Positions 13-59,513 of a stretch of DNA of 64,000 nucleotides are shown one piece after another. Origin of the DNA: Alphaproteobacteria bacterium (lineage in GTDB: Bacteria; Pseudomonadota; Alphaproteobacteria; CALMVH01). The DNA lies in the NCBI GenBank assembly GCA_965199265.1, contig CBDAQV010000004.1, positions 128,884 to 192,883 of the forward strand. Reading direction: 5' to 3'. Position 1 is the first letter of the stretch. Each line of letters opens with the position of its first letter. A model generated the notes under the pieces. That model saw only the letters and a program-made list of their open reading frames with translations. It did no database searches and was not told the origin of the DNA. Both the position numbers and the translations under genes were made by a program.

Positions 13-294
13 ATGTTCGTCTGTCTCATGAGCAACAAGCCGCGCGGGGTGCCGTACACCGGCGTGACCTCCGATCTGGTCCGGAGCCTTTACGAACACA
101 AGAATGGAATCACGGGCGGGTTTACATCCCGGTATGGCCTGCACCGGCTGGTCTACTTTGAACAGATCGATGAACCCATTGTGGCGATTGCGCGGGAAAA
201 AAGTGTCAAGCGCTGGGGTCGCGAATGGAAGTTCGGATTGGTTGAGGCAACCAATCCTCATTGGGTGGACTTGTACCCGTCTTTGCTTGGCTAG
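13..294 (+). CDS. GIY-YIG nuclease family protein (UPF0213-like small endonuclease)
   Basis: 93-aa ORF. Motif PYTGVTSDLVRSLYEHKNGITGGFTSRYGL matches the GIY-YIG / YIG...EH signature of small stand-alone GIY-YIG proteins. The start may lie at or just before the window edge. Confidence 0.65.
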   Translation: MFVCLMSNKPRGVPYTGVTSDLVRSLYEHKNGITGGFTSRYGLHRLVYFEQIDEPIVAIAREKSVKRWGREWKFGLVEATNPHWVDLYPSLLG

Positions 295-306
295 TCCCTT
301 TCGTTC

Positions 307-512
307 GTCATCCCGGACGCGGGCGCAGCCCGTGAGCCGGGATTTGTTTGGGATCAGGTTTGAGGCAGATCCCGGCTCTGCGCTTCGCTCCGGCCGGGAT
401 GACGGCGAAAAAAAGTAATATGTCATCCCGGACGCGGGCGCAGCCCGTAAGCCGGGATCTGCTCTATCCTGAGCGGGATTCCGGGCCGGCGCTTCGCTTC
501 GCCCCGGATGAC
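307..512. repeat. two tandem copies (307-403, 423-512) of a ~90-100 bp MITE-like palindromic repeat with terminal inverted repeats GTCATCCCGG...CCGGGATGAC
   Basis: The repeats are visible directly in the sequence. An inverted third copy occurs at 24788-24873. It sits intergenic between the GIY-YIG gene and the 3' end of the beta-oxidation operon. Confidence 0.6.
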
Positions 513-542
513 CACCATGGAAAGTGTCACTTTCCATGGTGG

Positions 543-2864
543 TCAATTCCTCAGCGGCTTGCCGGTGTCCAGCATGTGCTCGATCCGGTTCAGCGTGCCG
601 TCGTTGCGGACCAGCTTCAGGAACTCGCGGCGTTCCAGCGCGGTCAGGTCGTCCTCGCTCAAGATCCGGGTGATGTCGGTGTCGCCGCCGCTGATGACCG
701 TCGCGACCGCGCCCGCGACCACCGCGTCGTAGGCGGTGGCGAGGCCTTGGCCGCGGAAGTTCTGCACCGCCATGTCCAGCGCCAGCTTGGCGGTGGGGCC
801 CGGCAGGCGGATTTCCGGCGGCTCGGGCGGGCGGTAATCCTTCGCCAGTTCCAGCGCCTTCGCCTTCGCGTCGGCCAGCAGGCGGTCCTTGTTCATGGTG
901 ATGCCGTCAGACTCGCGCAGGTACAGCAACTCCTTCGCCTCGAACGCCGATTTCGACACCTTGGCGGTGCTGATGGTTTCGAAGGCCTGCGCCAGGCCCG
1001 GCATCGGGCCGCCGGAACGCTTCTTGTTGGCGGTGTGACGGACGACCATCTCCTTCGAGCCGCCCCAGCCGGGCAGCAGGCCGACGCCGACCTCGACCAG
1101 GCCCATGTAGATTTCGGCGTGCGCCTGGACGTGCGCCGAGTGCAGCAGGATCTCGCACCCGCCGCCCAGCGCCATGCCCGACGGGGCGCAGACGACCGGG
1201 AACGGCGCGTATTTCAGCGCCTTGTAGGTGGCCTGCCCGATGGCGACGGTTTCCTCGATCGCGGGGTAAAGCCCGACGTTCAGCGCGAATAGCGCGAGCC
1301 CCAGATTGGCGCCGACCGAGAAGTTCTCTCCCTCGTTGTGCACCACCAGCGCCTTCCACCGAGCTTTCCCGTCGCCGATCAGCGCGACCGCCTTGCCGAT
1401 CAGATCCATGATCAGCCCGTCCATCGAGTTCATTTTCGAGGTGAACTCAAGGCAGACGACGCCGTCGCCGATGTCCCACAGCGCGGCGGACGGGTTCTTC
1501 AGCAGCGGCTTGCCGGCGCGCTTGACGTCGGACAGCAGCAGCACGCCTTCGGCCCGCTTCAGGTCGGCGTACTCGCCGCCCGTCGTCAGGTACTGAAGCT
1601 TGCCTCCTTCGGTGCGGTAGAACGGCCGGCCCTCCGCGGTTTCGAGCAGCGTAGGCACCGGTAGGCCTTCCGCCTTCAGCCGCTCGGCGAACGCGCCCGA
1701 GCCCAGCTGGTCGATCAGCTCGAACGGGCCGTACTTCCAATTGTAGCCAAGGCGCATCGCCTCGTCGATCTCGGCGACGCTGTCCGCGATCTGCGGCACC
1801 AAGCTAGCGGCATAGCCCAGCGTGTCGCGCAGCACGCCCCAAGCGTACTTGTTGCCGGGCGCGGTGCCGCCGACCAGCGCTTTCAGCCCGCCGCGATACG
1901 CATCCTTGTCGGGCTTGCGCTCGGCGCGGTACTCGCCTGTCTTCAGGTCGATGGCTTCCTTGCGCTTGTCGCCGCCGTCGCGCACCAAACGGTAGAACCC
2001 GCCCTTGCCCTTGCGCCCCGTCAGTCCTTCCTCGATCATCTTCGTGATCAGCGGGATGTCGCGATGAACGGTGCGGTAAGCATCCTGCGGCGGCAGCGTC
2101 ATGAGCAGGCTTCGGGCAAGATGCGGCATGAGGTCGATGCCGACCAGGTCGACCAGGCCGAAAATGCCGCTCTTGGGCACGCCCATCGGCTTCGAGGCGA
2201 TCGCGTCGGCTTCCTCCACGTCCAGGCCAAGGTCGATCGCATGATTGATGCCCGCCTGGATCCACAGCGTGCCGATGCGGTTGGCGATGAAGCCCGGCGT
2301 GTCCCTCGCGCGCACCACGCCCTTGCCGAGGCGCAGATCGCAGAAGGCGGCTATCTCCGCCACAGCCTCCGCGCGCGTGTCCGGCCCCCCCACCAGTTCC
2401 AGCAGGCGCATGTAGCGCGGCGGGTTGAAGAAATGGGTGATCAGGAAGTCGCGGCGGAACGCGTCGGACTGGCCCTGGACGAGGTACTGTAGCGGGATGG
2501 TCGAGGTGTTCGACGACACGAACGAGCCCGGCTTGCGAACCGCGTCGACTTTCGCGTAGAGCGCGGACTTGATCTTGGGGTTCTCGATCACCGCCTCGAT
2601 GATCCAGTCGACGCCCGCCAGCTTCGCCAGGTCGTCCTCCAAATTGCCCGGGGTCACCAGCTTGACGGCGGACCGGCTCATGAACGGCGCGGGATCGGCC
2701 TTGAGCATCTTATCGATCGCGCCCTTGGCGATCTGCGACCTGTCAAGCGCGCCTTCGGGCACGATGTCCAACAGCAGGACAGGAACGCCGGCATTGGCGA
2801 TATGCGCGGCAATCGCCGCGCCCATCACCCCCGCGCCGAGGACGGCAACCTGCGCGATCGCCAT
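543..2864 (-). CDS. fused 3-hydroxyacyl-CoA dehydrogenase (N-terminal, NAD-binding) / enoyl-CoA hydratase (C-terminal crotonase fold), FadN/FadB-type
   Basis: The ORF-track protein is N-terminally over-extended. The true start MAIAQVAVLGAGVMGAAIAAHIANAG (Rossmann GxGxxG) sits at the ATG at 2864. The C-terminal half has a crotonase-fold motif (GGGCEILLHSAHV...GLLPGWGGS). Its start overlaps the thiolase stop (TAATG), implying translational coupling. Confidence 0.85.
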   Translation of the reverse strand: MAIAQVAVLGAGVMGAAIAAHIANAGVPVLLLDIVPEGALDRSQIAKGAIDKMLKADPAPFMSRSAVKLVTPGNLEDDLAKLAGVDWIIEAVIENPKIKSALYAKVDAVRKPGSFVSSNTSTIPLQYLVQGQSDAFRRDFLITHFFNPPRYMRLLELVGGPDTRAEAVAEIAAFCDLRLGKGVVRARDTPGFIANRIGTLWIQAGINHAIDLGLDVEEADAIASKPMGVPKSGIFGLVDLVGIDLMPHLARSLLMTLPPQDAYRTVHRDIPLITKMIEEGLTGRKGKGGFYRLVRDGGDKRKEAIDLKTGEYRAERKPDKDAYRGGLKALVGGTAPGNKYAWGVLRDTLGYAASLVPQIADSVAEIDEAMRLGYNWKYGPFELIDQLGSGAFAERLKAEGLPVPTLLETAEGRPFYRTEGGKLQYLTTGGEYADLKRAEGVLLLSDVKRAGKPLLKNPSAALWDIGDGVVCLEFTSKMNSMDGLIMDLIGKAVALIGDGKARWKALVVHNEGENFSVGANLGLALFALNVGLYPAIEETVAIGQATYKALKYAPFPVVCAPSGMALGGGCEILLHSAHVQAHAEIYMGLVEVGVGLLPGWGGSKEMVVRHTANKKRSGGPMPGLAQAFETISTAKVSKSAFEAKELLYLRESDGITMNKDRLLADAKAKALELAKDYRPPEPPEIRLPGPTAKLALDMAVQNFRGQGLATAYDAVVAGAVATVISGGDTDITRILSEDDLTALERREFLKLVRNDGTLNRIEHMLDTGKPLRN

Positions 2865-4003
2865 TATACCGCCTCCAGCACGGTGGCGATGCCCATGCCG
2901 CCGCCGATGCACATCGTGCCCAGCGCCAGCGCCTTGCCCTCGCGCTGCAGGACCGCCGCGGCGTGGCCCACGACGCGCGCGCCGCTGGCGCCCAGCGGGT
3001 GGCCCAGCGCGATGGCGCCGCCGTCGCGGTTCAGCTTGTCCAGGGGTATGTTCAGGTCGCGGATTACCGCCAGCGATTGCGCGGCGAAGGCCTCGTTCAG
3101 CTCGAAAACGTCGATGTCCTCGATGGTGACGCCGGCCCGCTTGAGCGCCTTGTGGACGGCGGGCACCGGCCCGATGCCCATGACATCCGGGGCGCAGCCG
3201 GCGACGGCGACGGACCTGATCCGCGCCATGATCGTCAGGCCGCGGCTCCTGGCATAATCCTCCGACGTGATCAGTGTCGCCGAGGCGCCGTCGGTCAGCG
3301 GCGAGGAATTGCCGGCGGTCACGGTTCCGCCCTCCTGTTTGAACGCCAACTTCAGCTCGCCCAGCTTCTCGATGGTGGTGTCGGGGCGGGGGCAGCCGTC
3401 CCGGTCTACCGTCCCGTCCGAAGTCTGGATCGGCACGATCTCCGCCGCATACCTTCCCTCCATCCACGCCTGCGCCGCCTTGCGGTGCGAGGCGAGCGCG
3501 AACTCGTCCTGCTCGCGCCGCCCGATGCCGTACTTGGCGGCAAGGTTCTCCGCCGTGTCCCCCATCGAGATGAAAGCCTGGATAGCCGGGTCCATCAATT
3601 TCGGGTTCGGCATGGGGTTGAAGCCGCCCATCGGCACGCGGGTCATGGATTCGACTCCGGCGGCGATGAACGCTTCGCCCGCGCCCAGCGCGATCGCGCC
3701 GGCGGCCATGTGGATCGCCTGCATCGACGAGCCGCAGAAGCGGTTGACGGTGGTACCTGCGGTTCCTAGCGGCAGCTTCGACAGCAGGCCGATCAGGCGG
3801 CCGACGTTGAAGCCCTGCTCGCCTTCGGGAAAGGCGCAGCCGACGATCAGATCTTCCAAATCCTGCGTTTCCAGCCCGGTTTCCACGACCAGCGCAGAGA
3901 CGACGGCGGCGGCCAGATCGTCCGGACGGACCCGGGCCAGCGCGCCCTTGTTGGCGAAATGGAACGGCGAGCGCTTGTAGCCCGCGACGACGGCGTTACT
4001 CAT
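2864..4003 (-). CDS. acetyl-CoA C-acyltransferase (3-ketoacyl-CoA thiolase)
   Basis: Thiolase motifs NRFCGSSMQAIHMAAGAI and a C-terminal GLATMCIGGGMG are present. The real start is MSNAVVAGYKRSPF at the ATG at 4003; the ORF-track start at 4045 is an over-extension. The 5' end overlaps the MerR gene stop by 8 nt. Confidence 0.85.
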   Translation of the reverse strand: MSNAVVAGYKRSPFHFANKGALARVRPDDLAAAVVSALVVETGLETQDLEDLIVGCAFPEGEQGFNVGRLIGLLSKLPLGTAGTTVNRFCGSSMQAIHMAAGAIALGAGEAFIAAGVESMTRVPMGGFNPMPNPKLMDPAIQAFISMGDTAENLAAKYGIGRREQDEFALASHRKAAQAWMEGRYAAEIVPIQTSDGTVDRDGCPRPDTTIEKLGELKLAFKQEGGTVTAGNSSPLTDGASATLITSEDYARSRGLTIMARIRSVAVAGCAPDVMGIGPVPAVHKALKRAGVTIEDIDVFELNEAFAAQSLAVIRDLNIPLDKLNRDGGAIALGHPLGASGARVVGHAAAVLQREGKALALGTMCIGGGMGIATVLEAV

Positions 4004-4430
4004 GGCAATCCTCTCCCCGATCTTCTCTTTGCGAAATAAGTTCAAGATGGGCGACGATTTCGCCCTCGACCCGTTCCAGCTCCTCCAGCGTCTGCTTCAC
4101 GTCCTCGAACTGGGTACGCAGCGCCGCGATCCGGGAGCGCGCGTGATCCAGAAGGTACTGCATCTGCTCGTGCTGGCACGAGTCAACGTTGTAAAGGCTG
4201 AGAAACTGCTTGATCTCGGAGACGGAAAAGCCCAGGCGCTTGCCGCGGCAGATCAGCTTCAGCCGCGCGCGGTCGGCCCTGGTGAACAGGCGAGCCTGCC
4301 CCTCGCGCAGCGGCGCCAGAAGCCCCTCGCCCTCGTAGAAGCGGATGGAGCGCAGGGTCAGGCCGAATTCATCCGCCAGCTGGCCGATGGTGTAGGTCCT
4401 GTCCTGTCCTGCCCGCCCAGCCGCTGACAT
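3996..4430 (-). CDS. MerR family transcriptional regulator (LiuR-like, first gene of thiolase/dehydrogenase operon)
   Basis: It has an N-terminal MerR HTH (YTIGQLADEFGLTLRSIRFYEGEGLL) and a C-terminal coiled-coil. It is co-directional and overlapping with the thiolase gene. Confidence 0.75.
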   Translation of the reverse strand: MSAAGRAGQDRTYTIGQLADEFGLTLRSIRFYEGEGLLAPLREGQARLFTRADRARLKLICRGKRLGFSVSEIKQFLSLYNVDSCQHEQMQYLLDHARSRIAALRTQFEDVKQTLEELERVEGEIVAHLELISQREDRGEDCHE

Positions 4431-4460
4431 GAAGCCGCCTTGTTTCCAATTTGCGAATTA

Positions 4461-4477
4461 GGCCTTACGTAAAGGTA
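4461..4477. promoter_or_regulatory. candidate MerR-type operator: near-palindrome CCTTACGTAAAGG with ACGT core, ~30 bp upstream of the MerR gene start
   Basis: The palindrome is seen in the sequence. Its position suits autoregulation of the operon. The assignment is tentative. Confidence 0.2.
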
Positions 4478-4684
4478 AGCCCATCGGCGGATGTTGGCAA
4501 GTACCGTAGGAATGCGCACGACAATTGCTCGAAGCGCCATCCCTATCGTCGCTCCGGCCGGAACGACGAATCCATACCTTTGATGCGCCGTCATCCAAGC
4601 ACGGACTCCGTGCTCCGCACGCAATAAATAGTCTGCGTATCAGTTGCTTGGCAGAGTGAAACGTTCAGAGGAAAATGCGAGGTG

Positions 4685-6007
4685 TCATTCCATGGTTTCC
4701 AGGGCGTTCAGGCGCAGGCGCAGCTCGGTTAGCTCGTCGGCCTCGAATCTGCCTTCGCATCCGGCGACGATGCGCCGGCCGCGGATCGTCAGCAGCCGCC
4801 GCATGTCGGGATCGGGCAAGGTGGCGGCGATGTCGCCCAGCGCGCGCAGCATGCGCAGGTTCACCGCCATGTCCGATTTCGAGTACAGCCTGATCTGCTC
4901 GAATGCGGAATCGAGAAGCCGGTCGAAGCCCAGCCAGGGAATGCTGACGCGAACGACACCCGGCGGATCGTAGATCAGCGCGTTCACCGGTTCGCGCGCC
5001 GCGTACCGGATCAGGATGCGGCTCAGCTGGTCGATGCACGAGATCGCCGTGCTGGGATCGTTGACCGCGGGCGAGATTGCCTTGAGCGCGATATCGACGA
5101 TCTGCAGGATGCCGTACTCGATGTCCTGCTGCAGCGTGCGTGTCGGTCCCAATTCGAAGAATGTCTGCAGCGTGCTGTTTTCCTGTGGCGTCAGGCGATC
5201 GCCCGGGGAGACGAGCGCGATCGGCACGCTGGCTGGCGCGAAATGGCCGACGCGGCGCAGGACACGGATCTTCACGCCCTTCGCCCTGGCAAAGCTCACC
5301 AGCCGCGGCGTGTCGATGAAGCGGACATAGCCCGACCGGCCGGCCAGGATAGCGCCGGCGCGCGGGTCGGGCTCGTTGACCGCGTTCAGGTCCGCAAGGT
5401 CCAGCCGCCCGGGCCGCCGTTGCGCGGGCATGGTCTCGTCGATGATCGCCTCGGTCTCCTCCGCGATGCGGTCGACGATGTGGTTGACGCTGATTGCCTC
5501 GGAAATGTGATGGATGAAGAACAGAAGCCACGCGACGCACAGCACCGACAGCACCATGCCGCCCAGAACGGTCAGCACGGGTTCGCTGGGGCTGGGCACC
5601 GAGTGCGCGAAGGGCAGCGCGGCAAGACAGTACAGGAACGTGCCGAGGAAGATGCCGAGCGTCTGCTGCGTCACGCGGTCCTGCGAAAAGCTGACGATGA
5701 TCCTGGGCGAGAACTGCATGGAGGCGAGGGTCAGCGTCATCAGCAGGATCGCGAACACGATGGACACCACGGTCATCACCGCCGCGGCGATGGTGGACAG
5801 GATGTTTTGCGCCACCTGAGGCTCGCCGCTGGACGGGAACATCGCGTGCGGGACGAACGCGTCGGCCAAGGGAAAAAACTGCTCTAGGTGCGGCAGCAGG
5901 TTGCCGAACGAGCCGAGGATCAGCGCGATGATCAGCGGCCGCACGAGGAAGCCGCCGCGCAGGCTGTATTTGATATAGTGCGCGATCTGCGGCAGGTGAT
6001 TTTTCAT
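4685..6007 (-). CDS. DUF2254 domain-containing membrane protein
   Basis: 440-aa ORF with N-terminal TM segments followed by a soluble domain, the typical DUF2254 architecture. The alternative-frame ORF 4665..6053 is a GC-rich artifact. Confidence 0.6.
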   Translation of the reverse strand: MKNHLPQIAHYIKYSLRGGFLVRPLIIALILGSFGNLLPHLEQFFPLADAFVPHAMFPSSGEPQVAQNILSTIAAAVMTVVSIVFAILLMTLTLASMQFSPRIIVSFSQDRVTQQTLGIFLGTFLYCLAALPFAHSVPSPSEPVLTVLGGMVLSVLCVAWLLFFIHHISEAISVNHIVDRIAEETEAIIDETMPAQRRPGRLDLADLNAVNEPDPRAGAILAGRSGYVRFIDTPRLVSFARAKGVKIRVLRRVGHFAPASVPIALVSPGDRLTPQENSTLQTFFELGPTRTLQQDIEYGILQIVDIALKAISPAVNDPSTAISCIDQLSRILIRYAAREPVNALIYDPPGVVRVSIPWLGFDRLLDSAFEQIRLYSKSDMAVNLRMLRALGDIAATLPDPDMRRLLTIRGRRIVAGCEGRFEADELTELRLRLNALETME

Positions 6008-6146
6008 GGCGGCGCTTTACGCCGAGAAGACCGATTTTCCGCCGGAAAGACAACAGGAATCGTCGGCGCGCGCAGCAGCGGAATACATATGGAAATTTTA
6101 CTCGCTATGATCGATAGGTAGCCGCTATTCAGGATTTGGAGCCCGT

Positions 6147-8047: not shown

Positions 8048-8665
8048 TTACTGGTTCGTCCGGACATACCCCAGGAGGGAGAACCGGTCGATGATCTCCA
8101 TCGCGCGGTATTCGCTTTCGTGATCGGCCGAACAGTTCAGTTCAAAGCAGGGCTGGGCGGGGCGGACCACGCGCGCCGACGCCAGCCACGTGTCCCAGTT
8201 CGCCAGCTTGTGCCTGTCGCGCGCGGCGCGGCGGTTGATCAGCCGCCGCTTCATGACCTCGTCCGTCGCGTGCACCCAGACGTAGTGGATGCGGACTGTC
8301 TTCGCCGACACCGTTTCGCAGCTGTGCTTGACGTGCATGCGCCACTCGGCATCGGTGAACTCGCGCATGAAGGGCGCGGTCGCGACGGTGGAGTTGCCCA
8401 ATGAGATATTCTCGAATACCGAGTTCATCAGGCATTCGTACTCCAGCGGCCGAACCTCGTTCGTGTAGTAGTCCGAGTCCCGTTCGTCCCGGCCCTCCGG
8501 ACCGCCCCTTGCCAGCAGCAGCATGTCGATCATGCGCCCGGTCAGGGTGTCCTTGTCGAAGTAGCCGAACTGCGTCTTGCGGCACAGCTCGTAGGCGACC
8601 GTCGTCTTGCCGCATCCGGCGAGGCCGCCAACGAGAACGAGGTGAACGATGCTGGAGGTGGTCAT
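8048..8665 (-). CDS. P-loop NTPase, AAA_33/zeta-toxin/polynucleotide-kinase-like kinase
   Basis: It has a Walker A motif LVGGLAGCGKTT. The likely start is the internal Met (MTTSSIVHLV), giving an ATGA overlap with the upstream kinase stop at 8662-8665. The region has lower GC (~56%). Confidence 0.55.
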   Translation of the reverse strand: MTTSSIVHLVLVGGLAGCGKTTVAYELCRKTQFGYFDKDTLTGRMIDMLLLARGGPEGRDERDSDYYTNEVRPLEYECLMNSVFENISLGNSTVATAPFMREFTDAEWRMHVKHSCETVSAKTVRIHYVWVHATDEVMKRRLINRRAARDRHKLANWDTWLASARVVRPAQPCFELNCSADHESEYRAMEIIDRFSLLGYVRTNQ

Positions 8666-9318
8666 TCGAGAAAGCTGCGTAGTGTATCGCAAGATTGTCG
8701 CCTTTCGGCAACGGCTACGCCATTTGAAAGAACTGTCGCTATGGACCGGGCAAGCTGCGACACGGTTTTCGAGCCGCTGTCTGTCACGAGGTCGAAATCC
8801 AGCAATCCCCTCCTATCCCTTTCGTCGCGCAATGTTTGCTGCTCCTGGTCGAAGGCCGCCAGCCTGGCCTCCACCTCGCCAAGCTGACCCGCATGCCGGT
8901 TTTCAAGCCGCACCCCTGCCGCCGCTCTCGAACACAGGAGCAGTATGCTCAGAGCGGGACGCAGAAGAGGATGCTGCCTTAGAGCAAGCAGGTTCTGGTA
9001 TTTGCCGACGTGGATTATAGGAATTTTCGCTGTCGAAAGGGTGCGATCCAGTTCCTCGACCGCCACGCCGTAGTAACGACCGTAGCGATCATGCCATTGC
9101 GCGAAACGGTTTTGCTGCGCCATCCGTTCGAACTGCGATACCGAAATATCGATGTAAGCCGCGCCGGGCTGTCCACCGCTTCCTGCCCGGTGCTTGCGAA
9201 AATGCACAAATTTAGGGTCGATGCCATGCAGTGCCTCGGTAAGGCTGTCTTTTCCAGATGCCGGCGGGCCGCTTAGAAGTATCGCCTCGTATAGATAGGG
9301 GTTTTCCGGGGAGGTCAT
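8662..9318 (-). CDS. guanylate-kinase-fold / PhnN-like P-loop kinase
   Basis: It has a Walker A motif LLSGPPASGKDSL and a GK-like R...AYIDISVSQFERM / YGRYYG region. It is translationally coupled (ATGA) to the downstream kinase. Confidence 0.6.
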   Translation of the reverse strand: MTSPENPYLYEAILLSGPPASGKDSLTEALHGIDPKFVHFRKHRAGSGGQPGAAYIDISVSQFERMAQQNRFAQWHDRYGRYYGVAVEELDRTLSTAKIPIIHVGKYQNLLALRQHPLLRPALSILLLCSRAAAGVRLENRHAGQLGEVEARLAAFDQEQQTLRDERDRRGLLDFDLVTDSGSKTVSQLARSIATVLSNGVAVAERRQSCDTLRSFLE

Positions 9319-9389
9319 GAAAGGTTTATAACAGATCGGCCCCGTAAAAGCAGGCGTTCATTCTCTACAGGTCCGTTGCGTTTGAGCCG

Positions 9390-10106
9390 TCAGCCGTTGC
9401 GCAGGTCCGGCGCTGTGTTTGGGCGGGGAAGGGTGCGCAAGCTTGAGTTTCCAACCTCTGCTAGGCTGGCCGCAATGGGCTGGCTCGACTGAAGGACGGG
9501 AGCCAAGGCGGCTGTCGTGTCCTTGGGCAGCATGCCGGCATACTCCATCAGCACGCCCAAGCCCTCGACCGTCTTGTGCGCAATCCGGATCTGGTCGGCT
9601 GCGCCGAGCGCCTTGCGGTTACCGAATTGCGCATAATCTTCGCCGCCCAGCGTCTTCATCAAGCGCGCCGCCACGTTCGAGAGTACGCCCTCGTCGCGCA
9701 AGGAGAAATTCTTTTCAAAGGGATCGAAACCGCCTCCGACAAGTTCTTCCAGTTCGGGCTGCGAGCGAAACAAATTAACGTGGCCGTTCCTGTAAACCGA
9801 TATGTGAGCCGATGCGGCGGCCTTCTTCTCCGGGTTGATGAAAGCCAGGTCGACCGTTCCGCCGCTCGGGGTATCCATGTAGTACTCCAGCCTCGAAACC
9901 TTGGCGGCCGGAGTCCTCGTGAGCAGATCGATACCGTCCCGCAGCTCGCGGAAGAACGGAGTGGACCGTATTCCAGCCTCGTGAGCCGCTTTGCGAGCGG
10001 CTGCCGCCGCTGCGTCCTCCGCGGAGGTGATCCCTTTGCGTTCGGTCGCGATCCCGTAATGAATTTCGTCCATGAGGCGCCCCTTTGTTTCGGCAGGAAT
10101 AACCAA
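9390..10106 (-). CDS. hypothetical protein (first gene of 3-gene lower-GC cassette; two H-x-[ST]-x motifs AHISV and AHKTV spaced ~78 aa, weakly reminiscent of 2H phosphoesterases)
   Basis: The 238-aa ORF shows good coding-frame persistence and is co-directional with the two kinase genes. I recognise no confident family. Confidence 0.45.
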   Translation of the reverse strand: MVIPAETKGRLMDEIHYGIATERKGITSAEDAAAAAARKAAHEAGIRSTPFFRELRDGIDLLTRTPAAKVSRLEYYMDTPSGGTVDLAFINPEKKAAASAHISVYRNGHVNLFRSQPELEELVGGGFDPFEKNFSLRDEGVLSNVAARLMKTLGGEDYAQFGNRKALGAADQIRIAHKTVEGLGVLMEYAGMLPKDTTAALAPVLQSSQPIAASLAEVGNSSLRTLPRPNTAPDLRNG

Positions 10107-10154
10107 AATGATTTATTAAATCAAGGTTAAACGCAGCGAAACCCCAAGCCCTCT

Positions 10155-12006
10155 TCACACCGCCAGCCCCTTCACGGCAAGGTCGCTCAACCGCCGGGCA
10201 AAGGCAGGGGCGTCCAGGACGGCTTCGCCTTCAGCGATGCGCGCTTGGTCCAGCAGCAGCCACGCCATCTCCTTGACCTCCTCGGGCGCGGCGGTCGCTT
10301 TCTCCGCCAGCCGCGCGATCAGGCGGTGTTTCGGGTTCACCTCCAGCACGCGCTTGACCAACGCGTCGAACTGCTTGTGCGCCTTCAGCAGGCGTTCGAG
10401 GTGCAGGTCGACGTCGCCCTCCCCCGAGACCAGGCAGACCGCGCTGTCCGTCAGGCGATGCGAGGCCTTCACGTCCTTGACATGCGCCGCCAGCGTTTCC
10501 TTCAGCAGGGCGAGCAGCGCTTCCATGCCCTCGGATGGTTTTGCCTCGGGCTCGGCCACGTCGTCGGCGGCCTTGATCTTGTCCAGGTCGTCGCCGCCGC
10601 GCGTCACCGAACGGAACTCCTTCTCCTTGTACGTGCCGACGGTCGAGGGCCAGAACTCGTCCACCGGGTCGGTCAGCAGCAGCACCTCGACGCCGCGCGC
10701 GCGGAAGCCCTCCAGCTGCGGGCTCTGCAGCAGCTTCTCGGCGTTGTCGCCGGCGATGGTGTAGATGGCGTCCTGGCCGTCCTTCATCCGCGACTCGTAG
10801 GCGGCAAGGCTGGTGTAGCCCTCCACCGCGGTCGAGCGGAAACGCACCAGCTTCAGCAACTCCTCCCGGCTTTCCACGTCCTCGTACAGGCCTTCCTTCA
10901 GCACCGCGCCAAAATTCTCCCAGAACTTGGCGTAGTCCTCCTCGTCGGCGGCGCGCTTGTTCAGTTCGGACAGGATGCGCTTGGTCACGCCTTGGCGGAT
11001 CTTAGTGATGATCGGGCTGGCCTGCAGCATCTCGCGGCTGATGTTCAGCGGCAGGTCCTCGCTGTCGATCACGCCGCGCATGAAGCGCAGCCACGCGGGG
11101 ATCAGCCCTTGCGCCGCCTCGGCGATAAAGACGCGGCGCACGTACAGCTTCACCTCGTGGTTGCGCTGCGGGTCGAACAGGTTGAATGGCTTGCTGTCGG
11201 GCACGAACAGCAGCGCCGAGTACTCGATCGTGCCCTCGGCGCGCCAGTGCAGCGTCGCCCACGGCGCGTCGTACGCCTTGGAGGTGTGCTGGTAGAATTC
11301 TTTATATTGCGCCTCGTCGATCTCGCTGCGCTGCCGCATCCACAGCGCGGAGGCGGCGTTCAGCTTTTCCTCCTCGCCTTCCAGCTCGATGGGGATGGCG
11401 ATGTGGTCGGAATACTTGCGCACGATCTGCTTCAGCCGCCCGGTCTCGAGGTAGTCGTCCTCCCCCTCGCGCAGGTGCAGGGTCAGCGACACGCCGCGCT
11501 CCGGCTTTTCCGCCGGGGCTACGGTGAACTCGCCACGTCCGTCCGACGACCACAGCCACGCCTCGCCGCTGCCCGCCTTGCGGCTGAGCACGGACACATG
11601 GTCGGCGACCATGTACGCGGGAGTAGAAGCCGACGCCGAACTGCCCGATCAGCGCCGAGTCCTTCTTGTCCTGAAGCGCCTGGGCAAAGGCGGCGGTGCC
11701 CGAGCGGGCGATGGTGCCGAGGTTGTCGATCAGCTCCTGCCGGTCCATGCCGATGCCATTATCGGCGATCGTCAGCGTCCGCGCGGCCTTGTCCACGGTG
11801 ATGCGGATCTTGAAATCGGTCCCGCCTTCGGCCAGCTGCCCTTGCGTCTGCGCCAGGTAGCGCAGCTTGTCGCACGCATCCGACGCGTTCGAGATCAACT
11901 CGCGCAGGAAGATCTCCTTCTCGCTGTACAGCGAGTGCGCGACGATATCGAGCAGGCGGCTGACTTCGGCCTGGAAGGAAAGTTTCTCTTCGGTTTCGAC
12001 GGTCAT
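10155..12006 (-). pseudogene. htpG: molecular chaperone HtpG (Hsp90), interrupted by +1 frameshift in a GGG/CCC run near 11619-11621 (likely sequencing error or pseudogene)
   Basis: The N-terminal ORF (11302..12006) carries the GHKL ATPase motifs ([30 protein letters not shown]). It then changes frame exactly at GVGFYS|AFMVADHV and continues in ORF 10155..11612. Deleting one C restores ...[16 protein letters not shown]. Confidence 0.85.
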
Positions 12007-12149
12007 TTTTGGTTTCCAGTCATGAGAACGTATAGCCGCATAGATGAGAGTACATCCGTCCTAACGCAAGATGGTCTGCGGGATGATTAGGTGTAGACGA
12101 TCGTTTGAGACTGCAAATTGGCTCTGTCATTCCGGCCGAAAGGCCGGAT

Positions 12150-12217
12150 CCATCCTTGGACAGTAGCGGCTGCACGTTCGTTCAGAGAAGGATACCGTGC
12201 CTTCGCACGGTATGACG
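12150..12217 (+). repeat. ~68-bp direct repeat, copy 1 (partner at 13061-13128), flanking a lower-GC two-ORF cassette
   Basis: CCATCCTTGGACAGTAGCGGCTGCACGTTCGTTCAGAGAAGGATACCGTGCCTTCGCACGGTATGACG versus CCATTCCTGGACAGTCGCGGCTACATGTTCTTTCAGAGATTAATACTGTGTCTTCGCACGGTATGACG. Copy 1 contains the hairpin CCGTGC-CTTC-GCACGG. Confidence 0.6.
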
Positions 12218-12286
12218 TCCCTGTATGAGTTCTCAAACGGTCACTAAATGATTGTACGTGAGGCACGAACAATATATTAAAGAAAA

Positions 12287-12493
12287 ATGAATTCCAAACG
12301 TATAGAAACGATCGACCAGTTGCATGCGCATGTCTCGGAACGGCTGAAGCCGTTTTCAGCGCCGGAGAAGACGGTAACCAGGCTTGTGGGACATCTTAGC
12401 TTCCTGCTCGACAAGGATGGACATTTTGATGCGGACTCCTCCTTGTTCGATTTCCGGGCAAGGTACGCGACAGCGCCCGCCGCATCGGCGTGA
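12287..12493 (+). CDS. hypothetical protein (68 aa; may be 5' part of a single gene with 12490..12999)
   Basis: It lies in the lower-GC region between the direct repeats. Its stop overlaps the GTG start of the next ORF (GTGA). Confidence 0.3.
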   Translation: MNSKRIETIDQLHAHVSERLKPFSAPEKTVTRLVGHLSFLLDKDGHFDADSSLFDFRARYATAPAASA

Positions 12494-12999
12494 CGCAGGA
12501 AGCCTTCGCCGCCGCCGCTCTGAAGCAGCCTCCACTGTTCTGTCAATCTCCGGAAACGTTGGAGCGGCATTATGGGCTTGCTGAGTCCTTGCATGAGAAG
12601 GGTCATGTGCCGGTCGGACGCGATCTGGCGAACTGGATATGCCTTGCCAGTCCGGTGACCTTGTGTTTAGCCGATGATAATTTCCTGCTGCGCATGGAAT
12701 GGGTGCGGCTGGGGCGCGAGCCCGGCCGTAAAAACATTCTTACTGTTCCTCGGCACAAAGTGGAGCGCGAGGTCATGGCGTTGCTGGGTCACTCCGACCC
12801 TAAGCAATCCGTCGCGAGTCAACTGCCGGCGAGTGCTTCGCCGCAAGAGCGTGAGCGCCACGAGCGGCTTTGCGAACTGATGAAAACCGGCTTGCTCAAG
12901 GGAGCAAAATTCGATGCGGCAACTCCGGTTCTTTCGTTGAAAAAAGCATTGGGAGCAAGTCCGCCAGCTCATGTAACAGGCCGGCGCGTCTCGATTTAA
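12490..12999 (+). CDS. hypothetical protein (169 aa), lower GC
   Basis: The ORF shows coding-like codon usage. It is followed by a strong inverted repeat TTAACGGCGCGC-N-GCGCGGCGTTAA at 12998-13022. Confidence 0.4.
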   Translation: MTQEAFAAAALKQPPLFCQSPETLERHYGLAESLHEKGHVPVGRDLANWICLASPVTLCLADDNFLLRMEWVRLGREPGRKNILTVPRHKVEREVMALLGHSDPKQSVASQLPASASPQERERHERLCELMKTGLLKGAKFDAATPVLSLKKALGASPPAHVTGRRVSI

Positions 13000-13060
13000 C
13001 GGCGCGCCTAGCGCGGCGTTAATCCATCCCGCTGCCGAACGGCGCCGCAAAGTTCGTGAT

Positions 13061-13128
13061 CCATTCCTGGACAGTCGCGGCTACATGTTCTTTCAGAGAT
13101 TAATACTGTGTCTTCGCACGGTATGACG
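13061..13128 (+). repeat. ~68-bp direct repeat, copy 2
   Basis: See copy 1. It lies ~160 bp upstream of the Suv3-like helicase start. Confidence 0.6.
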
Positions 13129-13287
13129 GCACGATGGATAGGGACGAGTTCCCGAGCCATCGCGCTTCTCGTCCAGGCTACGACGATCAAGGTCACCGTC
13201 AGGCAAGGGTGCCGGACATTGCAATCGCGCCGCCGCCGGTAGATATAAAGGCGGACGCATCTGATCTGTCGCGCGTGGGGAGGGAAG

Positions 13288-31783: not shown

Positions 31784-34642
31784 GTGACTCCGGACTATTT
31801 CATCCGCAAGTGGAAAGCCGCGACCCTGTCCGAACGGGCGGGGGCGCATTCGCATTTCCACGATCTGTGCGCGCTGCTTGACGAGGCGACGCCCAGCGAA
31901 AGCGATCCCACGGGGGCGACCTATGCCTTTGAGAAAGGCGTGACCAAGACCACCGGCGGCGATGGCTGGGCCGACGTGTGGAAGCGCGGCTGCTTCGCGT
32001 GGGAATACAAGGGCAAGGGCAAGGACCTGCAGGCAGCCTACGCGCAATTGCAGCGCTACGCCGTCGCGCTGGAGAATCCGCCTTTGCTGATCGTCTCGGA
32101 CATCGACAGTATCGAGATTCACACCAACTGGACCAACACGGTCCGCCAGATACACCGCATCACCCTGGACGATCTGGCGGACGCGAAGGAGCGCCAGAAA
32201 CTGAAATGGGCGTTCAGCGATCCCGACCGGCTGAAGCCGGGCGAAACGCGGCAGGGCCTGACGGAGAAAGCGGCGGAGCAGTTCGCCAGCCTCGCGCAGC
32301 GCCTCAGGGCGCGCGGCTACGAGGCCCCGCGCGTCGCGCACTTCGTCAACCGGCTGGTGTTCTGCATGTTCGCGGAGGATGTCGGCCTGCTGCCGGACAA
32401 GCTGTTCATCAAGCTGATGCAGGCAGGCGCAAAGAACCCTGCGGCGTTCGAGCAACTGGCGCGCGGCCTGTTCGGCGCGATGCGCGGCGGCGGCTTCCTC
32501 GGCCTCGACCCGGTGCCATGGTTCAACGGCGGGCTGTTCGACGACGACGACGCGTTGCCGCTCGACCGGCACGACCTGGAACAGACGCTGGCGGCGGCGC
32601 GGCTCGATTGGGCCGAAATCGACCCTTCCATCCTCGGTACCCTGTTCGAGCGCGGGCTGGACCCCGACAAGCGCAGCCAGCTCGGCGCGCACTACACCGA
32701 CCGCGACAAGATCATGCTGATCGTGGAGCCGGTGATCGTCCGCCCGCTGGCGCGCGAGTGGGAAGACGCCAGGGCCGAGGCGCAAGCCTTGCTGGACCGG
32801 GCCGAGGCGGCGAAATCGCCCGCCGCGCGCACCAAAGCGCGCAAGGAGGCGGAGGCCGTCTGCATCCGCTACCTCGAACGGCTGAAGAATTTCCGCGTCC
32901 TCGACCCCGCCTGCGGCTCGGGCAATTTCCTGTACCTGGCGCTGCTGGCGCTGAAAGACATCGAGCACCGCGCCAATCTGGAATCCGAGGCCATGGGCTT
33001 GCCCCGCCGCCTTATCATCGGTGTCGGACCCGAAAACCTGCTGGGGATCGAGATCAACCCCTACGCCGCCGAACTGGCGCGCGTGTCGGTGTGGATCGGC
33101 GAAATCCAGTGGATGCTGCGCCACAATTACGGCACCTCGCGCGACCCGATCCTGCGCTCCCTCAACACCATCGAATGCCGCGACGCCCTGCTGAACCCGG
33201 ACGGCACGGAAGCACAGTGGCCGAGGGCGGACGTGATCGTGGGAAATCCGCCGTTCCTGGGTGGGAAGCGCATGCGTTCATCGCTTGGGGATGGCTATTG
33301 CGCCACGCTCTTCAGCATATATGCGAAGCGAGTTCCCGCCGAGGCAGACCTTGTCTGTTACTGGTTTGCCAAGTCGCGCGAAGCGCAACAAAACGGATTG
33401 CTGAAGCGCGCCGGACTGGTCGCCACGAACAGCATTCGCGGCGGTGCGAACCGTGACTGTCTTGAGCGCATCGTTGCAGCCGGGAGCATTTCCGCCGCAT
33501 GGAGCGATGAGCCGTGGGTTCTGAACGGCGCTGCCGTGCGCGTGTCCCTCGTCTGCTTTGATCCGAAGCCTGGCGAAAGCGCCATGCTGAATGGCAAGCC
33601 TGTTACCGTGATTCGCAGCGATCTGACTGCCAACGCCTCCGACCTTACGACTGCGCGACAACTCGCCTCCAACCGGAGTGTCGCTTTCATGGGCGATACC
33701 AAAGGGGGAGCATTCGACATTCCCGGCGAGCTTGCTCGTGAATGGCTGCAATTGCCCGCGAATCCGAACGGCAGGCCGAACAGTGATGTGATAAAGCCAT
33801 GGGCAAATGGCATGACTGTTACCCGGCGTCCTGCGGATATGTGGGTTGTTGATTTCGGCTGGACCATGAGCGAGGCAGAAGCCTCATTTTATTCGGCTCC
33901 ATTTGCCTATGTGGCAGATTGCGTTAAGCCGGAACGTCTGAAAAATAACCGGGAAGCGTACGCAAAGTTCTGGTGGCGGCATGTTGAACCGCGACCAGGA
34001 ATGCTTGCTAAGTTTCAAATTGTAAAACGTTTCATAGTGACAACTCGTGTAGCGAAGCACCGGACGTTCGTTTGGATGAGCTTACCGACACTTCCCGATA
34101 GCGCAGTAATTGCTATAGCCCGCGACGACGATACGAGTTTCGGCATCCTGCACAGCCGGTTTCATGAATTGTGGTCATTGGGCCTGTGCACATGGCTTGG
34201 CGTTGGGAACGATCCGCGCTACACGCCCCGAACGACGTTCGAGACATTCCCCTTCCCGCCGGGGCTGGAGCCGCACGTGCCTGCCGCCCTCTATGCCGAC
34301 GACCCGAGGGCGCAGGCGATTGCCGAGGCCGCGCGCACATTGGTCGAGGCGCGGGACCGTTGGCTGAACCCGCCCGAACTGATCGACATCGTGCCGGAAG
34401 TCGTGCCCGGCTACCCCGACCGCATCGTGCCCCGCGACGCGCGCGCCGCCGCGATCCTAAAAACCCGCACCCTCACCAACCTCTACAACACGCGCGGCAA
34501 ACCCGAAGGCGCATGGCTGGACCACCTGCACCACGACCTCGACTCAGCCGTAGCCGCCGCCTACGGCTGGCCCGCCGACCTGCCCGACGAGGACGTGCTG
34601 GCGCGGTTATTGGAGATGAATTTGGGAAAGCACATCTCCTGA
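31784..34642 (+). CDS. MmeI-family Type IIL restriction-modification enzyme (single polypeptide: N-terminal D-X9-E-X-K endonuclease, gamma-class N6-adenine methyltransferase with NPPF motif, C-terminal TRD)
   Basis: It aligns with MmeI blocks I recall: GWADVWKRGCFAWEYKGKGKDL (D-X9-EYK), VNRLVFCMFAEDVGLL, QLGAHYTDRDKI, VLDPACGSGNFLYLAL (motif I) and VIVGNPPFLGG (motif IV). GC drops from ~64% to ~52% over the TRD portion (33250-34200). Confidence 0.8.
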   Translation: MTPDYFIRKWKAATLSERAGAHSHFHDLCALLDEATPSESDPTGATYAFEKGVTKTTGGDGWADVWKRGCFAWEYKGKGKDLQAAYAQLQRYAVALENPPLLIVSDIDSIEIHTNWTNTVRQIHRITLDDLADAKERQKLKWAFSDPDRLKPGETRQGLTEKAAEQFASLAQRLRARGYEAPRVAHFVNRLVFCMFAEDVGLLPDKLFIKLMQAGAKNPAAFEQLARGLFGAMRGGGFLGLDPVPWFNGGLFDDDDALPLDRHDLEQTLAAARLDWAEIDPSILGTLFERGLDPDKRSQLGAHYTDRDKIMLIVEPVIVRPLAREWEDARAEAQALLDRAEAAKSPAARTKARKEAEAVCIRYLERLKNFRVLDPACGSGNFLYLALLALKDIEHRANLESEAMGLPRRLIIGVGPENLLGIEINPYAAELARVSVWIGEIQWMLRHNYGTSRDPILRSLNTIECRDALLNPDGTEAQWPRADVIVGNPPFLGGKRMRSSLGDGYCATLFSIYAKRVPAEADLVCYWFAKSREAQQNGLLKRAGLVATNSIRGGANRDCLERIVAAGSISAAWSDEPWVLNGAAVRVSLVCFDPKPGESAMLNGKPVTVIRSDLTANASDLTTARQLASNRSVAFMGDTKGGAFDIPGELAREWLQLPANPNGRPNSDVIKPWANGMTVTRRPADMWVVDFGWTMSEAEASFYSAPFAYVADCVKPERLKNNREAYAKFWWRHVEPRPGMLAKFQIVKRFIVTTRVAKHRTFVWMSLPTLPDSAVIAIARDDDTSFGILHSRFHELWSLGLCTWLGVGNDPRYTPRTTFETFPFPPGLEPHVPAALYADDPRAQAIAEAARTLVEARDRWLNPPELIDIVPEVVPGYPDRIVPRDARAAAILKTRTLTNLYNTRGKPEGAWLDHLHHDLDSAVAAAYGWPADLPDEDVLARLLEMNLGKHIS

Positions 34643-44320: not shown

Positions 44321-46888
<2,568 letters not shown>

Positions 46889-47005
46889 TCACCGGGAACG
46901 GGCAGGTTCCAACCTAGGATCATTGCCCGGAACGCCGATCAACAGCAAAAAAGTTCTTGTTATGTTCTTTATTCTACAGTATGATTTTAGTGCTCTGGAG
47001 GTAGA

Positions 47006-47854
47006 ATGTTCGAAGTTCAAAAAGCTATGCTGACGATCAACGGCCGAGGCCTGCTGTTTGCAGGCAAGCACGTCCTTGCGCCCCTAGGTTCCGCAACGCG
47101 ACGCTTTAACTTGGAATACGATCTTGAACCGGTTCTAGCTCAGCTCACTGCAGGCTATATGCGACCTGTCAATACCCGTACGGTGTCGCTGCTTTACTCC
47201 GCGCTAGCAGCTTGGAACAGGGGTGATTTTGGGCGTGCTGCTTACGACTTGATTCTGACAAGTCTTCCCGATCCGAAGGACAACACTAATTTTTACGAGC
47301 GCATCGAGGCCGTAGACAAGGCTATCGCGACAGGTCGCCGTCCAAAGGACGTTCTGAAAACGTTTGGCGTGAACCCTGCGTGGATGGACGAAGCCCGCGT
47401 TCCGGCCGGTCAGACCGATGCAGGCGAATGGGTTAGCGGCGATAACGATACAGGAGATGTCACAAATATTGCCGCTCACAGCGGAGATCCGTCCATCAGG
47501 TGGAATGCAAAGGTGAAAGCTCTGCCTCAATCGTCGCTCGATGCTTTGAGAACGGCCATGCGCCTCGAAGATTTGCCTGCAAATCAGTTCGATGATATGG
47601 CATGGATAATGGCCCAGGAGTCCCAGGGCGTCGTTGGTGTTCCGAACAATCGCGGTGGAAGTGCTAGTGGTCTTTTCCAGTTGCAGCCATCAAACTATCA
47701 TTTTTATCCAAACGGAGCGAAATCGATCGGAAATGCCGTTGAGGAGGCACAAGGAGGAATTCGCTATATGCTATGGAAGTACGGTAATGCCGCCAGAGCA
47801 AAAGCCGCATGGGTTAAAAATTATAATGTAAACCCTAACAATCCTTTTTGGTAA
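47006..47854 (+). CDS. hypothetical protein with C-terminal lytic-transglycosylase (SLT/lysozyme-like) motif; low GC (~47%); candidate peptidoglycan-targeting effector
   Basis: A GGAGG RBS precedes the start. AQESQGVVGVPNNRGGSASGLFQLQPSNY fits the SLT catalytic E-S...GLMQ pattern. GC is far below the host value. Confidence 0.5.
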   Translation: MFEVQKAMLTINGRGLLFAGKHVLAPLGSATRRFNLEYDLEPVLAQLTAGYMRPVNTRTVSLLYSALAAWNRGDFGRAAYDLILTSLPDPKDNTNFYERIEAVDKAIATGRRPKDVLKTFGVNPAWMDEARVPAGQTDAGEWVSGDNDTGDVTNIAAHSGDPSIRWNAKVKALPQSSLDALRTAMRLEDLPANQFDDMAWIMAQESQGVVGVPNNRGGSASGLFQLQPSNYHFYPNGAKSIGNAVEEAQGGIRYMLWKYGNAARAKAAWVKNYNVNPNNPFW

Positions 47855-59345: not shown

Positions 59346-59419
59346 GTGGTTGGGGGACGTGGATTCGAACCACGGTAAACAGAGTCAGAGTCTGTTGTCC
59401 TACCGCTAGACGATCCCCC
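59346..59419 (-). tRNA. tRNA-Gln (anticodon CUG)
   Basis: The 74-nt sequence UGGGGGAUCGUCUAGCGGUAGGAC...CUCUGAC...GGUUCGAAUCCACGUCCCCCAACCA folds as a cloverleaf. It has a 7-bp acceptor stem with U1-A72, a 3-bp D-stem typical of tRNA-Gln, and a T-loop GTTCGAATC. The CCA is encoded. Confidence 0.85.
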
Positions 59420-59513
59420 AACAGTGCCGATGTCAGCGACGGAACGCTCCATAGCACCATAGATGGTCGCCATCAAGGGCTGCCGTTTGCGAAGGCAAAC
59501 AGACCCCGATCAT

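Follow-up and report, generated by a model that had tools for sequence, protein, structure and literature searches.

A 64,000-nucleotide stretch of an alphaproteobacterial genome (GenBank assembly GCA_965199265.1, contig CBDAQV010000004.1, positions 128,884 to 192,883; hereafter the window) contains, on the minus strand directly 3′ of htpG, three co-directional open reading frames (ORFs) called here g1, g2 and g3, the last two of which encode distinct P-loop kinases of the guanylate kinase (GK)/PhnN-like and AAA_33 types. Judged by their sequences, g2 and g3 appear to form a rare proteobacterial copy of a two-kinase module of Actinomycetota, re-formed in reversed order and without a helix-turn-helix (HTH) domain. 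The origin that we favour, with somewhat more confidence than doubt, is a composite locus in which a resident g3 was joined by a foreign segment carrying g1 and g2, rebuilding the two-kinase module, with sequential phosphorylation as its likely activity. An earlier note on this DNA had described the three genes as an htpG-linked trio, and its description of their order, of the ATGA overlap between the two kinase genes, of the two kinase types and of the motifs quoted for all three proteins is confirmed by the ORF calls, the sequence and the domain matches given below.

The evidence that ties g2 to g3 comes from the way in which their families are arranged elsewhere. A tblastn search of plasmids with g2 recovers genes of ~30% identity, annotated as "guanylate kinase", on 63 Streptomyces plasmids, and several of these adjoin an "AAA family ATPase". 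On pSV2 and on a plasmid of S. virginiae, the gene for this 345-aa AAA ATPase overlaps that of the following 189-aa kinase by 4 nt, and the pair is also present in the chromosome of Thermomonospora curvata (P0009 and the next ORF). When actinomycete genome loci were retrieved through the g3-type AAA_33 domain alone, a GK-like gene was found immediately downstream of the AAA_33 gene in 74 of the 78 cases, and among 75 loci at least 62 have the two families joined by a 4-nt stop/start overlap. Retrieval of metagenome loci through a GK-like P-loop pattern alone gave 39, with an AAA_33 gene upstream of the GK-like gene in 33; at least three of the six unpaired loci are cut by contig ends. AAA_33 and GK-like kinases are a near-obligate, usually translationally coupled pair in Actinomycetota, and because their families are paired in this manner g2 and g3 are very probably functionally linked. 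An accidental adjacency is very unlikely, despite the reversed gene order and the differing ages of the two genes in this genome.

The pair itself seems to have gone undescribed. No account of it was found in the literature on the integrative and conjugative elements of actinomycetes (AICEs), Streptomyces plasmids, AAA_33/HTH_31 proteins or operons like that of chloramphenicol phosphotransferase (CPT), and no PADLOC or NCBIfam model describing it was found, in agreement with the earlier remark that the genes belong to no pathway that could be named. PADLOC and PHROGs gave nothing significant for g1, g2 or g3, and likewise nothing for the actinomycete pair.

The product of g2 passes the Pfam threshold for Guanylate_kin (PF00625; 32 bits, cutoff 25.2, E 1.2e-7) and carries the motifs SGPPASGKDSL and YGRYYG, and the PDB entries that its family matches, along the whole of the family's own length, are guanylate kinases, with the yeast, mouse and bacterial enzymes best. 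The possibility that the kinases belong to well-characterized housekeeping families, which the earlier note had envisaged, does not agree with the equivalog models, whose cutoffs g2 misses by a wide distance (45.7 bits against 160.45 for Gmk, TIGR03263; 32.4 bits against 156 for PhnN, TIGR02322); its identity to E. coli PhnN is 34% over 149 aa. A profile of 71 actinomycete partner kinases, on the other hand, gives g2 104.7 bits (E 2e-34), compared to 23.5 for E. coli PhnN and 20.4 for Gmk, and phmmer aligns g2 with individual actinomycete partners at 61-65 bits (E ~1e-12 even at Z=5.8e9). Identity to the pSV2 "guanylate kinase", which has the same GPPASGKD P-loop, is 30% over 193 aa, and that to the T. 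curvata ORF is 27%. In alignments with 1GKY and 4F4J (HMMER) and with E. coli Gmk (MAFFT), g2 has a gap at R41, Q for E69, V for S80 and H/G for D98/D100, and keeps R38, Y50 and Y78; S34, R41, E69, S80 and D100 of yeast Guk1 are positions involved in guanine/GMP recognition. By these comparisons, g2 is neither a housekeeping guanylate kinase nor a PhnN, but a member of a separate GK/PhnN-fold family.

Two properties of the searches affect how the distribution of g2 relatives is to be read. A word-indexed search with g2 returned only g2 itself, a prefilter miss given that phmmer detects the actinomycete partners at the scores above, and the metagenome pattern, [YF]GPP..GK[DS]T, cannot match a g2-like SGPPASGKDS, so that closer relatives of g2 may exist. 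The best non-actinomycete relative, with 34% identity, is on L092, a metagenome contig of 35% GC. There (250-6088) the gene overlaps an upstream gene for a 235-aa protein of unassigned family, whose N-terminus (GFVIVKPEG) presumably recalls nucleoside-diphosphate kinase, and the flanks encode a NodU/CmcH-type carbamoyltransferase upstream and a 925-aa NACHT-like NTPase downstream.

g3 matches Pfam AAA_33 (PF13671; 55.1 bits, cutoff 27, E 1.4e-14), with a Walker A sequence GGLAGCGKT(T), a DKD motif and an RRAARD lid; NCBIfam scores are far under the cutoffs, and no HTH domain was found on its 205 residues. It reaches 181.9 bits against the actinomycete AAA_33 profile and is 41% identical to the C-terminal half of the pSV2 AAA ATPase. 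Against the PDB, the profile of the g3 family finds shikimate kinases and gluconate kinases, to which it aligns over the Walker A and D-x-D (DKD) segment, and no polynucleotide kinase (PNK) was found among its hits at E<=1; Zeta_toxin (PF06414) was not found among the Pfam hits of g3 at the same threshold. Homologues with 50-68% identity occur in a handful of Rhodospirillales-like metagenome contigs, and the nearest genome match is an uncultured Rhodospirillales metagenome-assembled genome. The homologues of L001/L008 and L002 each overlap the stop codon of an acyl-CoA synthetase gene and, whatever the kind of the preceding gene, such an overlap is present in three of four related loci; because g3 homologues overlap diverse preceding genes in this way, the ATGA overlap with g2 is by itself weak evidence of linkage. 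Its features suggest that g3 is resident here and that its product is a kinase similar to those for shikimate and gluconate.

Both enzymes are probably catalytically active, since every family-invariant catalytic residue is kept: g2 has all 17 invariant residues of its family, including G17, P18, P19, G22, K23, G46, Y55, R78, Y79, Y83, P100, G105, L127, R137, R141 and R152, and g3 has G14, G17, G19, K20, D37, K38, D39, R62, Y67, R72, E75, Y76, R145, R149, D150 and K153.

Other g3 homologues stand in surroundings of their own. On L004, a 2.3-kb metagenome contig, the closest of them (892-1509, 68% identity) is preceded by a gene for a 226-aa AAA_33 paralogue (153-833; 124 bits against the actinomycete profile), two g3-type kinase genes standing there in tandem instead of a g2/g3 pair. 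A few kb downstream of the g3 homologues in L001 (10943-12436), L003 (8528-9060) and L004 (1568-2065) are genes for ParE-type toxins, with a small ORF upstream of each, followed in L001 by NUDIX and TraG/type IV secretion coupling-protein genes, which hints that proteobacterial g3 loci may also be in mobile or plasmid-like regions.

The history of the locus is recorded in its base composition. The region 8048-10106 (2,059 bp) has a GC content of 60.2%, compared to a window mean of 64.5%, and 11% of the same-size windows in the 64 kb have a GC content as low or lower. The anomaly is due to g1 (GC 61.4%; GC at third codon positions, GC3, 0.74) and to g2 (GC 57.1%, GC3 0.60), whereas g3 (GC 63.4%, GC3 0.89) has a native-like codon usage, similar to that of htpG (GC3 0.89-0.91) and of the genes for an amino-acid permease (0.87), a DUF2254 protein (0.88) and a Suv3-like helicase (0.87). 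A sliding frame plot shows coding-type GC periodicity unbroken across g1 and g2, with no frame change, and a sharp switch of GC3 from 0.60 to 0.89 at the start codon of g3; g1 and g2 both look coding and intact. On metagenome contig L003, no DNA separates htpG from the g3 homologue, the two genes sharing a TGATG overlap; in the window, the 1,489 bp that contain g1 and g2 fill precisely the space from the htpG stop codon to the ATG of g3. Because the codon usage of g3 is native and its homologue lies directly behind htpG in L003, only g1 and g2 look acquired, and we infer that 8666-10154 is a foreign insertion of ~1.5 kb next to a resident g3 (Table 1); because GC3 differs so strongly between g2 and g3, the two kinase genes would not have arrived together. 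What had been described as a horizontally acquired three-gene cassette of ~56% GC in a ~65% background is in this respect correct for g1 and g2, which are atypical and look foreign, and not for g3.

Table 1. Positions of the g1–g3 locus and its upstream neighbour within the 64-kb window
Feature	Position	Strand	Description
g1	9390..10073	−	227-aa putative ORFan; alternative TTG start at 10106 gives 238 aa
g2	8662..9318	−	218-aa predicted GK/PhnN-fold P-loop kinase, a divergent member of the actinomycete partner-kinase family
g3	8048..8665	−	205-aa AAA_33-type P-loop kinase, ATG start at 8665
ATGA overlap, g2 stop/g3 start	8662..8665	−	Read from sequence
Compositionally atypical stretch	8666..10154	−	1,489 bp with g1, g2 and two AT-richer spacers; presumed insertion
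htpG (upstream neighbour)	10155..12006	−	Two overlapping ORFs, 11302-12006 and 10155-11612

Around g2, the neighbours are htpG, g1 and g3, together with the permease and DUF2254 genes. Between htpG and g3, the minus strand has no terminator-like site, and its sole sigma-70-like site is upstream of htpG, at 12280-12251; it is plausible that htpG, g1, g2 and g3 are read as one transcript from the htpG promoter. Searches for target-site duplications or terminal inverted repeats flanking the 1.49-kb segment gave matches at chance level only, no tRNA or Rfam element was found near it (the only tRNA of the window is at 59347-59420), and TraB, RepSA, Spd or other mobile-element genes were not found near the locus. 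Elsewhere in the 64-kb window, no second copy of the g2 or g3 family was found. The htpG gene is split by a single surplus C within a run of three (CCC, 11619-11621, in the context tac tcc c gcg tac atg), a position at which HtpG of L003 is intact and reads ...GFYSAYMVA...; this frameshift is either a homopolymer assembly error or the mark of a recent pseudogene. Beyond htpG lies a second low-GC stretch (11750-13250, 51-58% GC), with an ORF on the plus strand (12490-12999, 169 aa, GC3 0.61) that has no Pfam match, so that htpG and g3 have atypical DNA on both sides.

In the composite locus that we favour, g3 would be the resident gene, its homologue in relatives closing another operon and in one case coming straight after htpG, and the ~1.5-kb foreign segment with g1 and g2 would have been placed exactly between htpG and g3. 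The AAA_33 kinase, whose D-x-D motif aligns with that of shikimate kinase, would put a first phosphate on a hydroxyl group; the GK/PhnN-fold kinase, with the layout of a nucleoside monophosphate kinase, three lid arginines and phosphate-binding Arg/Tyr residues, could add a second phosphate onto the first, so that one small molecule would be converted from X-OH via X-P to X-PP. Phosphorylation of a phosphate group is the reaction of PhnN, which acts on ribose 1,5-bisphosphate, and likewise that of Gmk, which acts on GMP.

Several observations weigh against this account. The order in the window, with the GK-like gene first, is the reverse of that in all 74 genome and 33 metagenome pairs, and the codon usage of g2 and g3 is very unlike (GC3 0.60 and 0.89), their adjacency thus needing either a selected re-association or a coincidence. 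The proteobacterial homologues of g3 are otherwise solo, in L001-L004 as well as on Mycetohabitans megaplasmids, and because they are, g3 must have a function without g2. Moreover, g2 departs from its family at several sites that hardly vary otherwise, by the exchanges W122A and D86A and by three residues inserted in the lid, and the htpG frameshift shows that assembly indel errors may be present. The substrate and the two-step chemistry are purely extrapolated from the known chemistry of the two families, and no structure model is usable (pLDDT 42-43); that of g2, predicted by AlphaFold2 from the single sequence, has a pLDDT of 43.

What the module may do is suggested by its surroundings in Actinomycetota, where conjugative plasmids or integrative elements often carry the pair. 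The AAA_33 partner usually has an N-terminal HTH of the XRE type (HTH_31) or GntR type, a short form without HTH being encoded by 11 loci. Among 75 loci, the neighbours of the pair within 4 kb include an FtsK/SpoIIIE-type TraB in 27, a DUF2637 protein in 23 and a pSAM2-type RepSA in 15, as well as a HAD hydrolase in 26 and a DUF1932 NAD(P) oxidoreductase in 25; the last two, which are also found in L089, L090 and L132, may belong to the same small-molecule pathway as the pair. On the 26-kb Pseudonocardia plasmid pPaSha3, the kinase operon is divergent from a WhiB-DUF2637-transfer gene block, the place that AICE reviews give to the universal GntR/XRE regulator (PMC2440964). Every AICE codes for such a regulator of the GntR or XRE kind, and many also for a Nudix hydrolase, Pif, by which transfer immunity is controlled (PMC2440964). 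Further units of regulator and kinase often adjoin the actinomycete pair: on pSV2 (L090, 2308-3773), a GntR-UTRA regulator gene overlaps that of a 236-aa AAA_33/Zeta_toxin-like ATP-binding protein, and T. curvata (L007, 9172-10104) encodes a second HTH_31-AAA_33 protein of 310 aa.

One may speculate that the HTH fusion and the HAD phosphatase and dehydrogenase neighbours fit a small-molecule or signal metabolism tied to conjugative elements. A more far-reaching proposal, which we consider tentative and on balance improbable, is that pairs of the g2/g3 type constitute an undescribed two-step pathway for a diphosphorylated small-molecule or nucleotide signal governing the transfer or immunity of actinomycete conjugative elements, a signal that would be read by the HTH and removed by HAD or Nudix hydrolases from neighbouring genes, and that the pair was re-assembled independently in this alphaproteobacterium, a foreign g2 having been inserted ahead of a resident g3, which would testify directly to selection for the partnership.

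A related but less probable explanation is that the pair is a toxin-antitoxin, abortive-infection or conjugation-control module, in which one kinase would make a toxic or signalling phosphorylated nucleotide or sugar in the manner of zeta/PezT, the other kinase or g1 would counteract or tune it, and the actinomycete HTH would autoregulate the operon. Such a module would agree with the location of the actinomycete pair on conjugative elements, divergent from TraB/FtsK-Spd genes and with RepSA nearby, with the GntR/XRE regulators and Pif Nudix transfer immunity of AICEs (PMC2440964), with the ParE-type toxin genes close to g3 homologues in L001, L003 and L004, and with the XRE/GntR HTH of the AAA_33 partners, which have weak Zeta_toxin scores of 20.7-24.2 bits around the cutoff of 22.3. 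It agrees less well with the even conservation of the two kinases, unlike that of typical toxin/antitoxin pairs, with the lack of a PADLOC match for either family and of a Zeta_toxin hit for g3 at E<=1, and with the window locus, which has no HTH, no mobile-element genes and no small partner of the toxin-antitoxin kind.

Lower again in probability is a chance juxtaposition, whereby an unrelated acquired GK/PhnN-like kinase gene landed upstream of g3 and the ATGA merely reflects the overlap habit of g3. The differing codon usage of the two genes, the overlap of g3 homologues with unrelated upstream genes (acyl-CoA synthetase, htpG) and the other proteobacterial g3 homologues that have no g2-like neighbour are all as expected on this view. 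Chance would nonetheless have had to pick, for g2, exactly the family that partners g3-type kinases in ~95% of actinomycete loci, and no further member of this family was seen in the 64 kb or at the other proteobacterial loci; a landing beside the cognate family is improbable.

Inactivation of an antibiotic or xenobiotic, with both kinases phosphorylating a toxic compound as CPT does and the pair acting as a mobile resistance trait, is quite unlikely. In its favour are the occurrence of the pair on plasmids, the score of the pSV2 partner kinase with the Pfam CPT model (35.4 bits, cutoff 22) and the annotation of one plasmid homologue as CPT family; on the other side, g2 matches Guanylate_kin rather than CPT, the score against the NCBIfam CPT equivalog is 16.8 with a cutoff of 250, and resistance leaves both the strict two-kinase pairing and the fused HTH unexplained.

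The third gene of the trio, g1, stands apart from the kinases. Its most likely start is the ATG at 10073, which is preceded by a Shine-Dalgarno-like AAAGGGG and matches the public protein P0001, rather than the TTG at 10106 that gives the 238-aa form described before. As that description had it, g1 has no recognizable family: an exhaustive phmmer search of 1.84 billion representatives found only g1 itself, a word-indexed search likewise, and there was no match in NCBIfam, PADLOC, PHROGs or phages and one hit at E 0.8 in plasmids. A Pfam scan at E<=1 gave solely a sub-threshold NUDIX hit (E 0.12) and no 2H family, and phmmer against the PDB at E<=10 gave only rusticyanin (E 1) and no 2H structure. 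The gene is absent from the 110-plus other loci with the kinase pair, shows no resemblance to the 235-aa gene located ahead of the closest non-actinomycete g2 relative on L092, and did not correspond to a free-standing form of the actinomycete N-terminal HTH region (hhalign probability 0.2%). A tblastn match of 25 aa in L119 was discarded, as it falls in a spurious ORF. With no homologues for an alignment, AlphaFold2 on the single sequence gave an unusable model (pLDDT 42, pTM 0.31). All this suggests that g1 is a true ORFan and a lineage-specific passenger; the arrangement common to at least 110 loci is that of the two kinases, g1 being in none of them.

The assignment of g1 as a 2H esterase, which had been proposed on the basis of two histidine motifs ~78 aa apart, appears unsupported. 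The motifs, AHISV (residue 90) and AHKTV (residue 166 of the 227-aa form), are present and 76 residues apart, but two H-x-[ST] motifs at a distance of 60-100 residues occur in ~3% of g1 shuffles and in one of the 32 high-GC3 ORFs of the window, and in the low-confidence model the second motif is within a predicted helix. An RNA-end healing or small nucleotide-modifying pathway in which g1 would be a 2H phosphodiesterase, g3 a polynucleotide kinase and g2 a nucleotide kinase, as put forward in the earlier note, is very improbable, for although g1 has the motif pair and the AAA_33 Pfam family also includes polynucleotide kinase domains, g1 has no 2H hit, PDB match or homologue and does not accompany the kinase pair elsewhere, g3 is related by profile to shikimate and gluconate kinases rather than to PNK or zeta proteins and matches a PHROG PNK only over its P-loop (residues 8-40, E 0.036), and no ligase, Hen1 or phosphatase was found near the three genes.

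Elsewhere in the window, one of the two lowest-GC islands (~54% GC, 33200-33900) is overlapped by the gene for an MmeI-family type IIG restriction-modification enzyme of 952 aa (31784-34642, plus strand), which has MmeI_N, MmeI_hel, MmeI_Mtase and MmeI_TRD domains. In the other (~54% GC, 46200-47000) lie the 5′ end and the upstream region of gyrB (44321-46843, minus strand), and the 282-aa ORF next to this island (47006-47854) has no Pfam match.

In summary, the automatic annotations "guanylate kinase" and "AAA family ATPase" hide a tightly coupled, widespread and uncharacterized pair, found here in at least 110 loci and on ~70 Streptomyces plasmids, whose place on small conjugative plasmids and integrative elements is that of the GntR/XRE regulator. 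Were its product a phosphorylated signal or a protective metabolite, the pair would be a new component of the poorly understood control of Streptomyces-type conjugation, and the window suggests that the partnership can re-form across phyla. A likely mis-annotation is corrected, in that g2 is not Gmk and not PhnN either. As regards this genome by itself, the message is modest: a small foreign insertion appears to have put an orphan gene and a second kinase beside a resident kinase, and there is no sign of an RNA-repair system.

Compared with known systems, the locus recalls Pnkp/Hen1, T4 Pnk and the 2H proteins LigT/ThpR by its broadly AAA_33-type kinase and a protein with two H-x-[ST] motifs, but its proteins do not match PNK, phosphatase, ligase, Hen1 or 2H proteins in sequence, and g1 is not conserved with the kinases. 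Zeta/PezT with epsilon/PezA resembles the pair in that small P-loop kinases are encoded by overlapping two-gene operons of mobile elements, PezA being a partner with an HTH; the partner here is a second kinase instead of a small antitoxin, and g3 lacks a Zeta_toxin hit. Shikimate and gluconate kinase (GntK) share with g3 the Walker A and DKD substrate/Mg motifs, a small single domain and an arginine-rich lid, but the likeness is limited to ~55 N-terminal residues (E 7e-4), the g3 family has invariants of its own (R62, Y67, R72-x-x-E75-Y76, W108, R149-D150 and K153), and g3 has no aromatic-amino-acid or gluconate pathway context.

Gmk is similar to g2 in its conserved lid arginines and phosphate-binding Arg/Tyr, and the Pfam domain threshold is passed; g2 is, however, outside a gmk-rpoZ-spoT context and under the equivalog cutoff. 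PhnN of E. coli (b4094) has the GK fold, a G-P-x-x-S-G-K-D-S-L P-loop with an Asp after the Lys, and the WH..YYGV.VE and RLENR lid motifs in common with g2, whose score against the partner-kinase profile is nevertheless four times that of PhnN and which, unlike the gene in the E. coli phn operon, has no C-P lyase (phn) genes beside it. From the actinomycete operon (pSV2 WP_172682193 and WP_011116909; T. curvata), the window locus differs in its reversed order, the lack of an HTH, its chromosomal position by htpG without TraB, RepSA or Spd, and the extra g1; what the two have in common is the presence of both families, with identities of ~28% for g2 and 41% for g3, their invariant residues and the 4-nt overlap between the genes.

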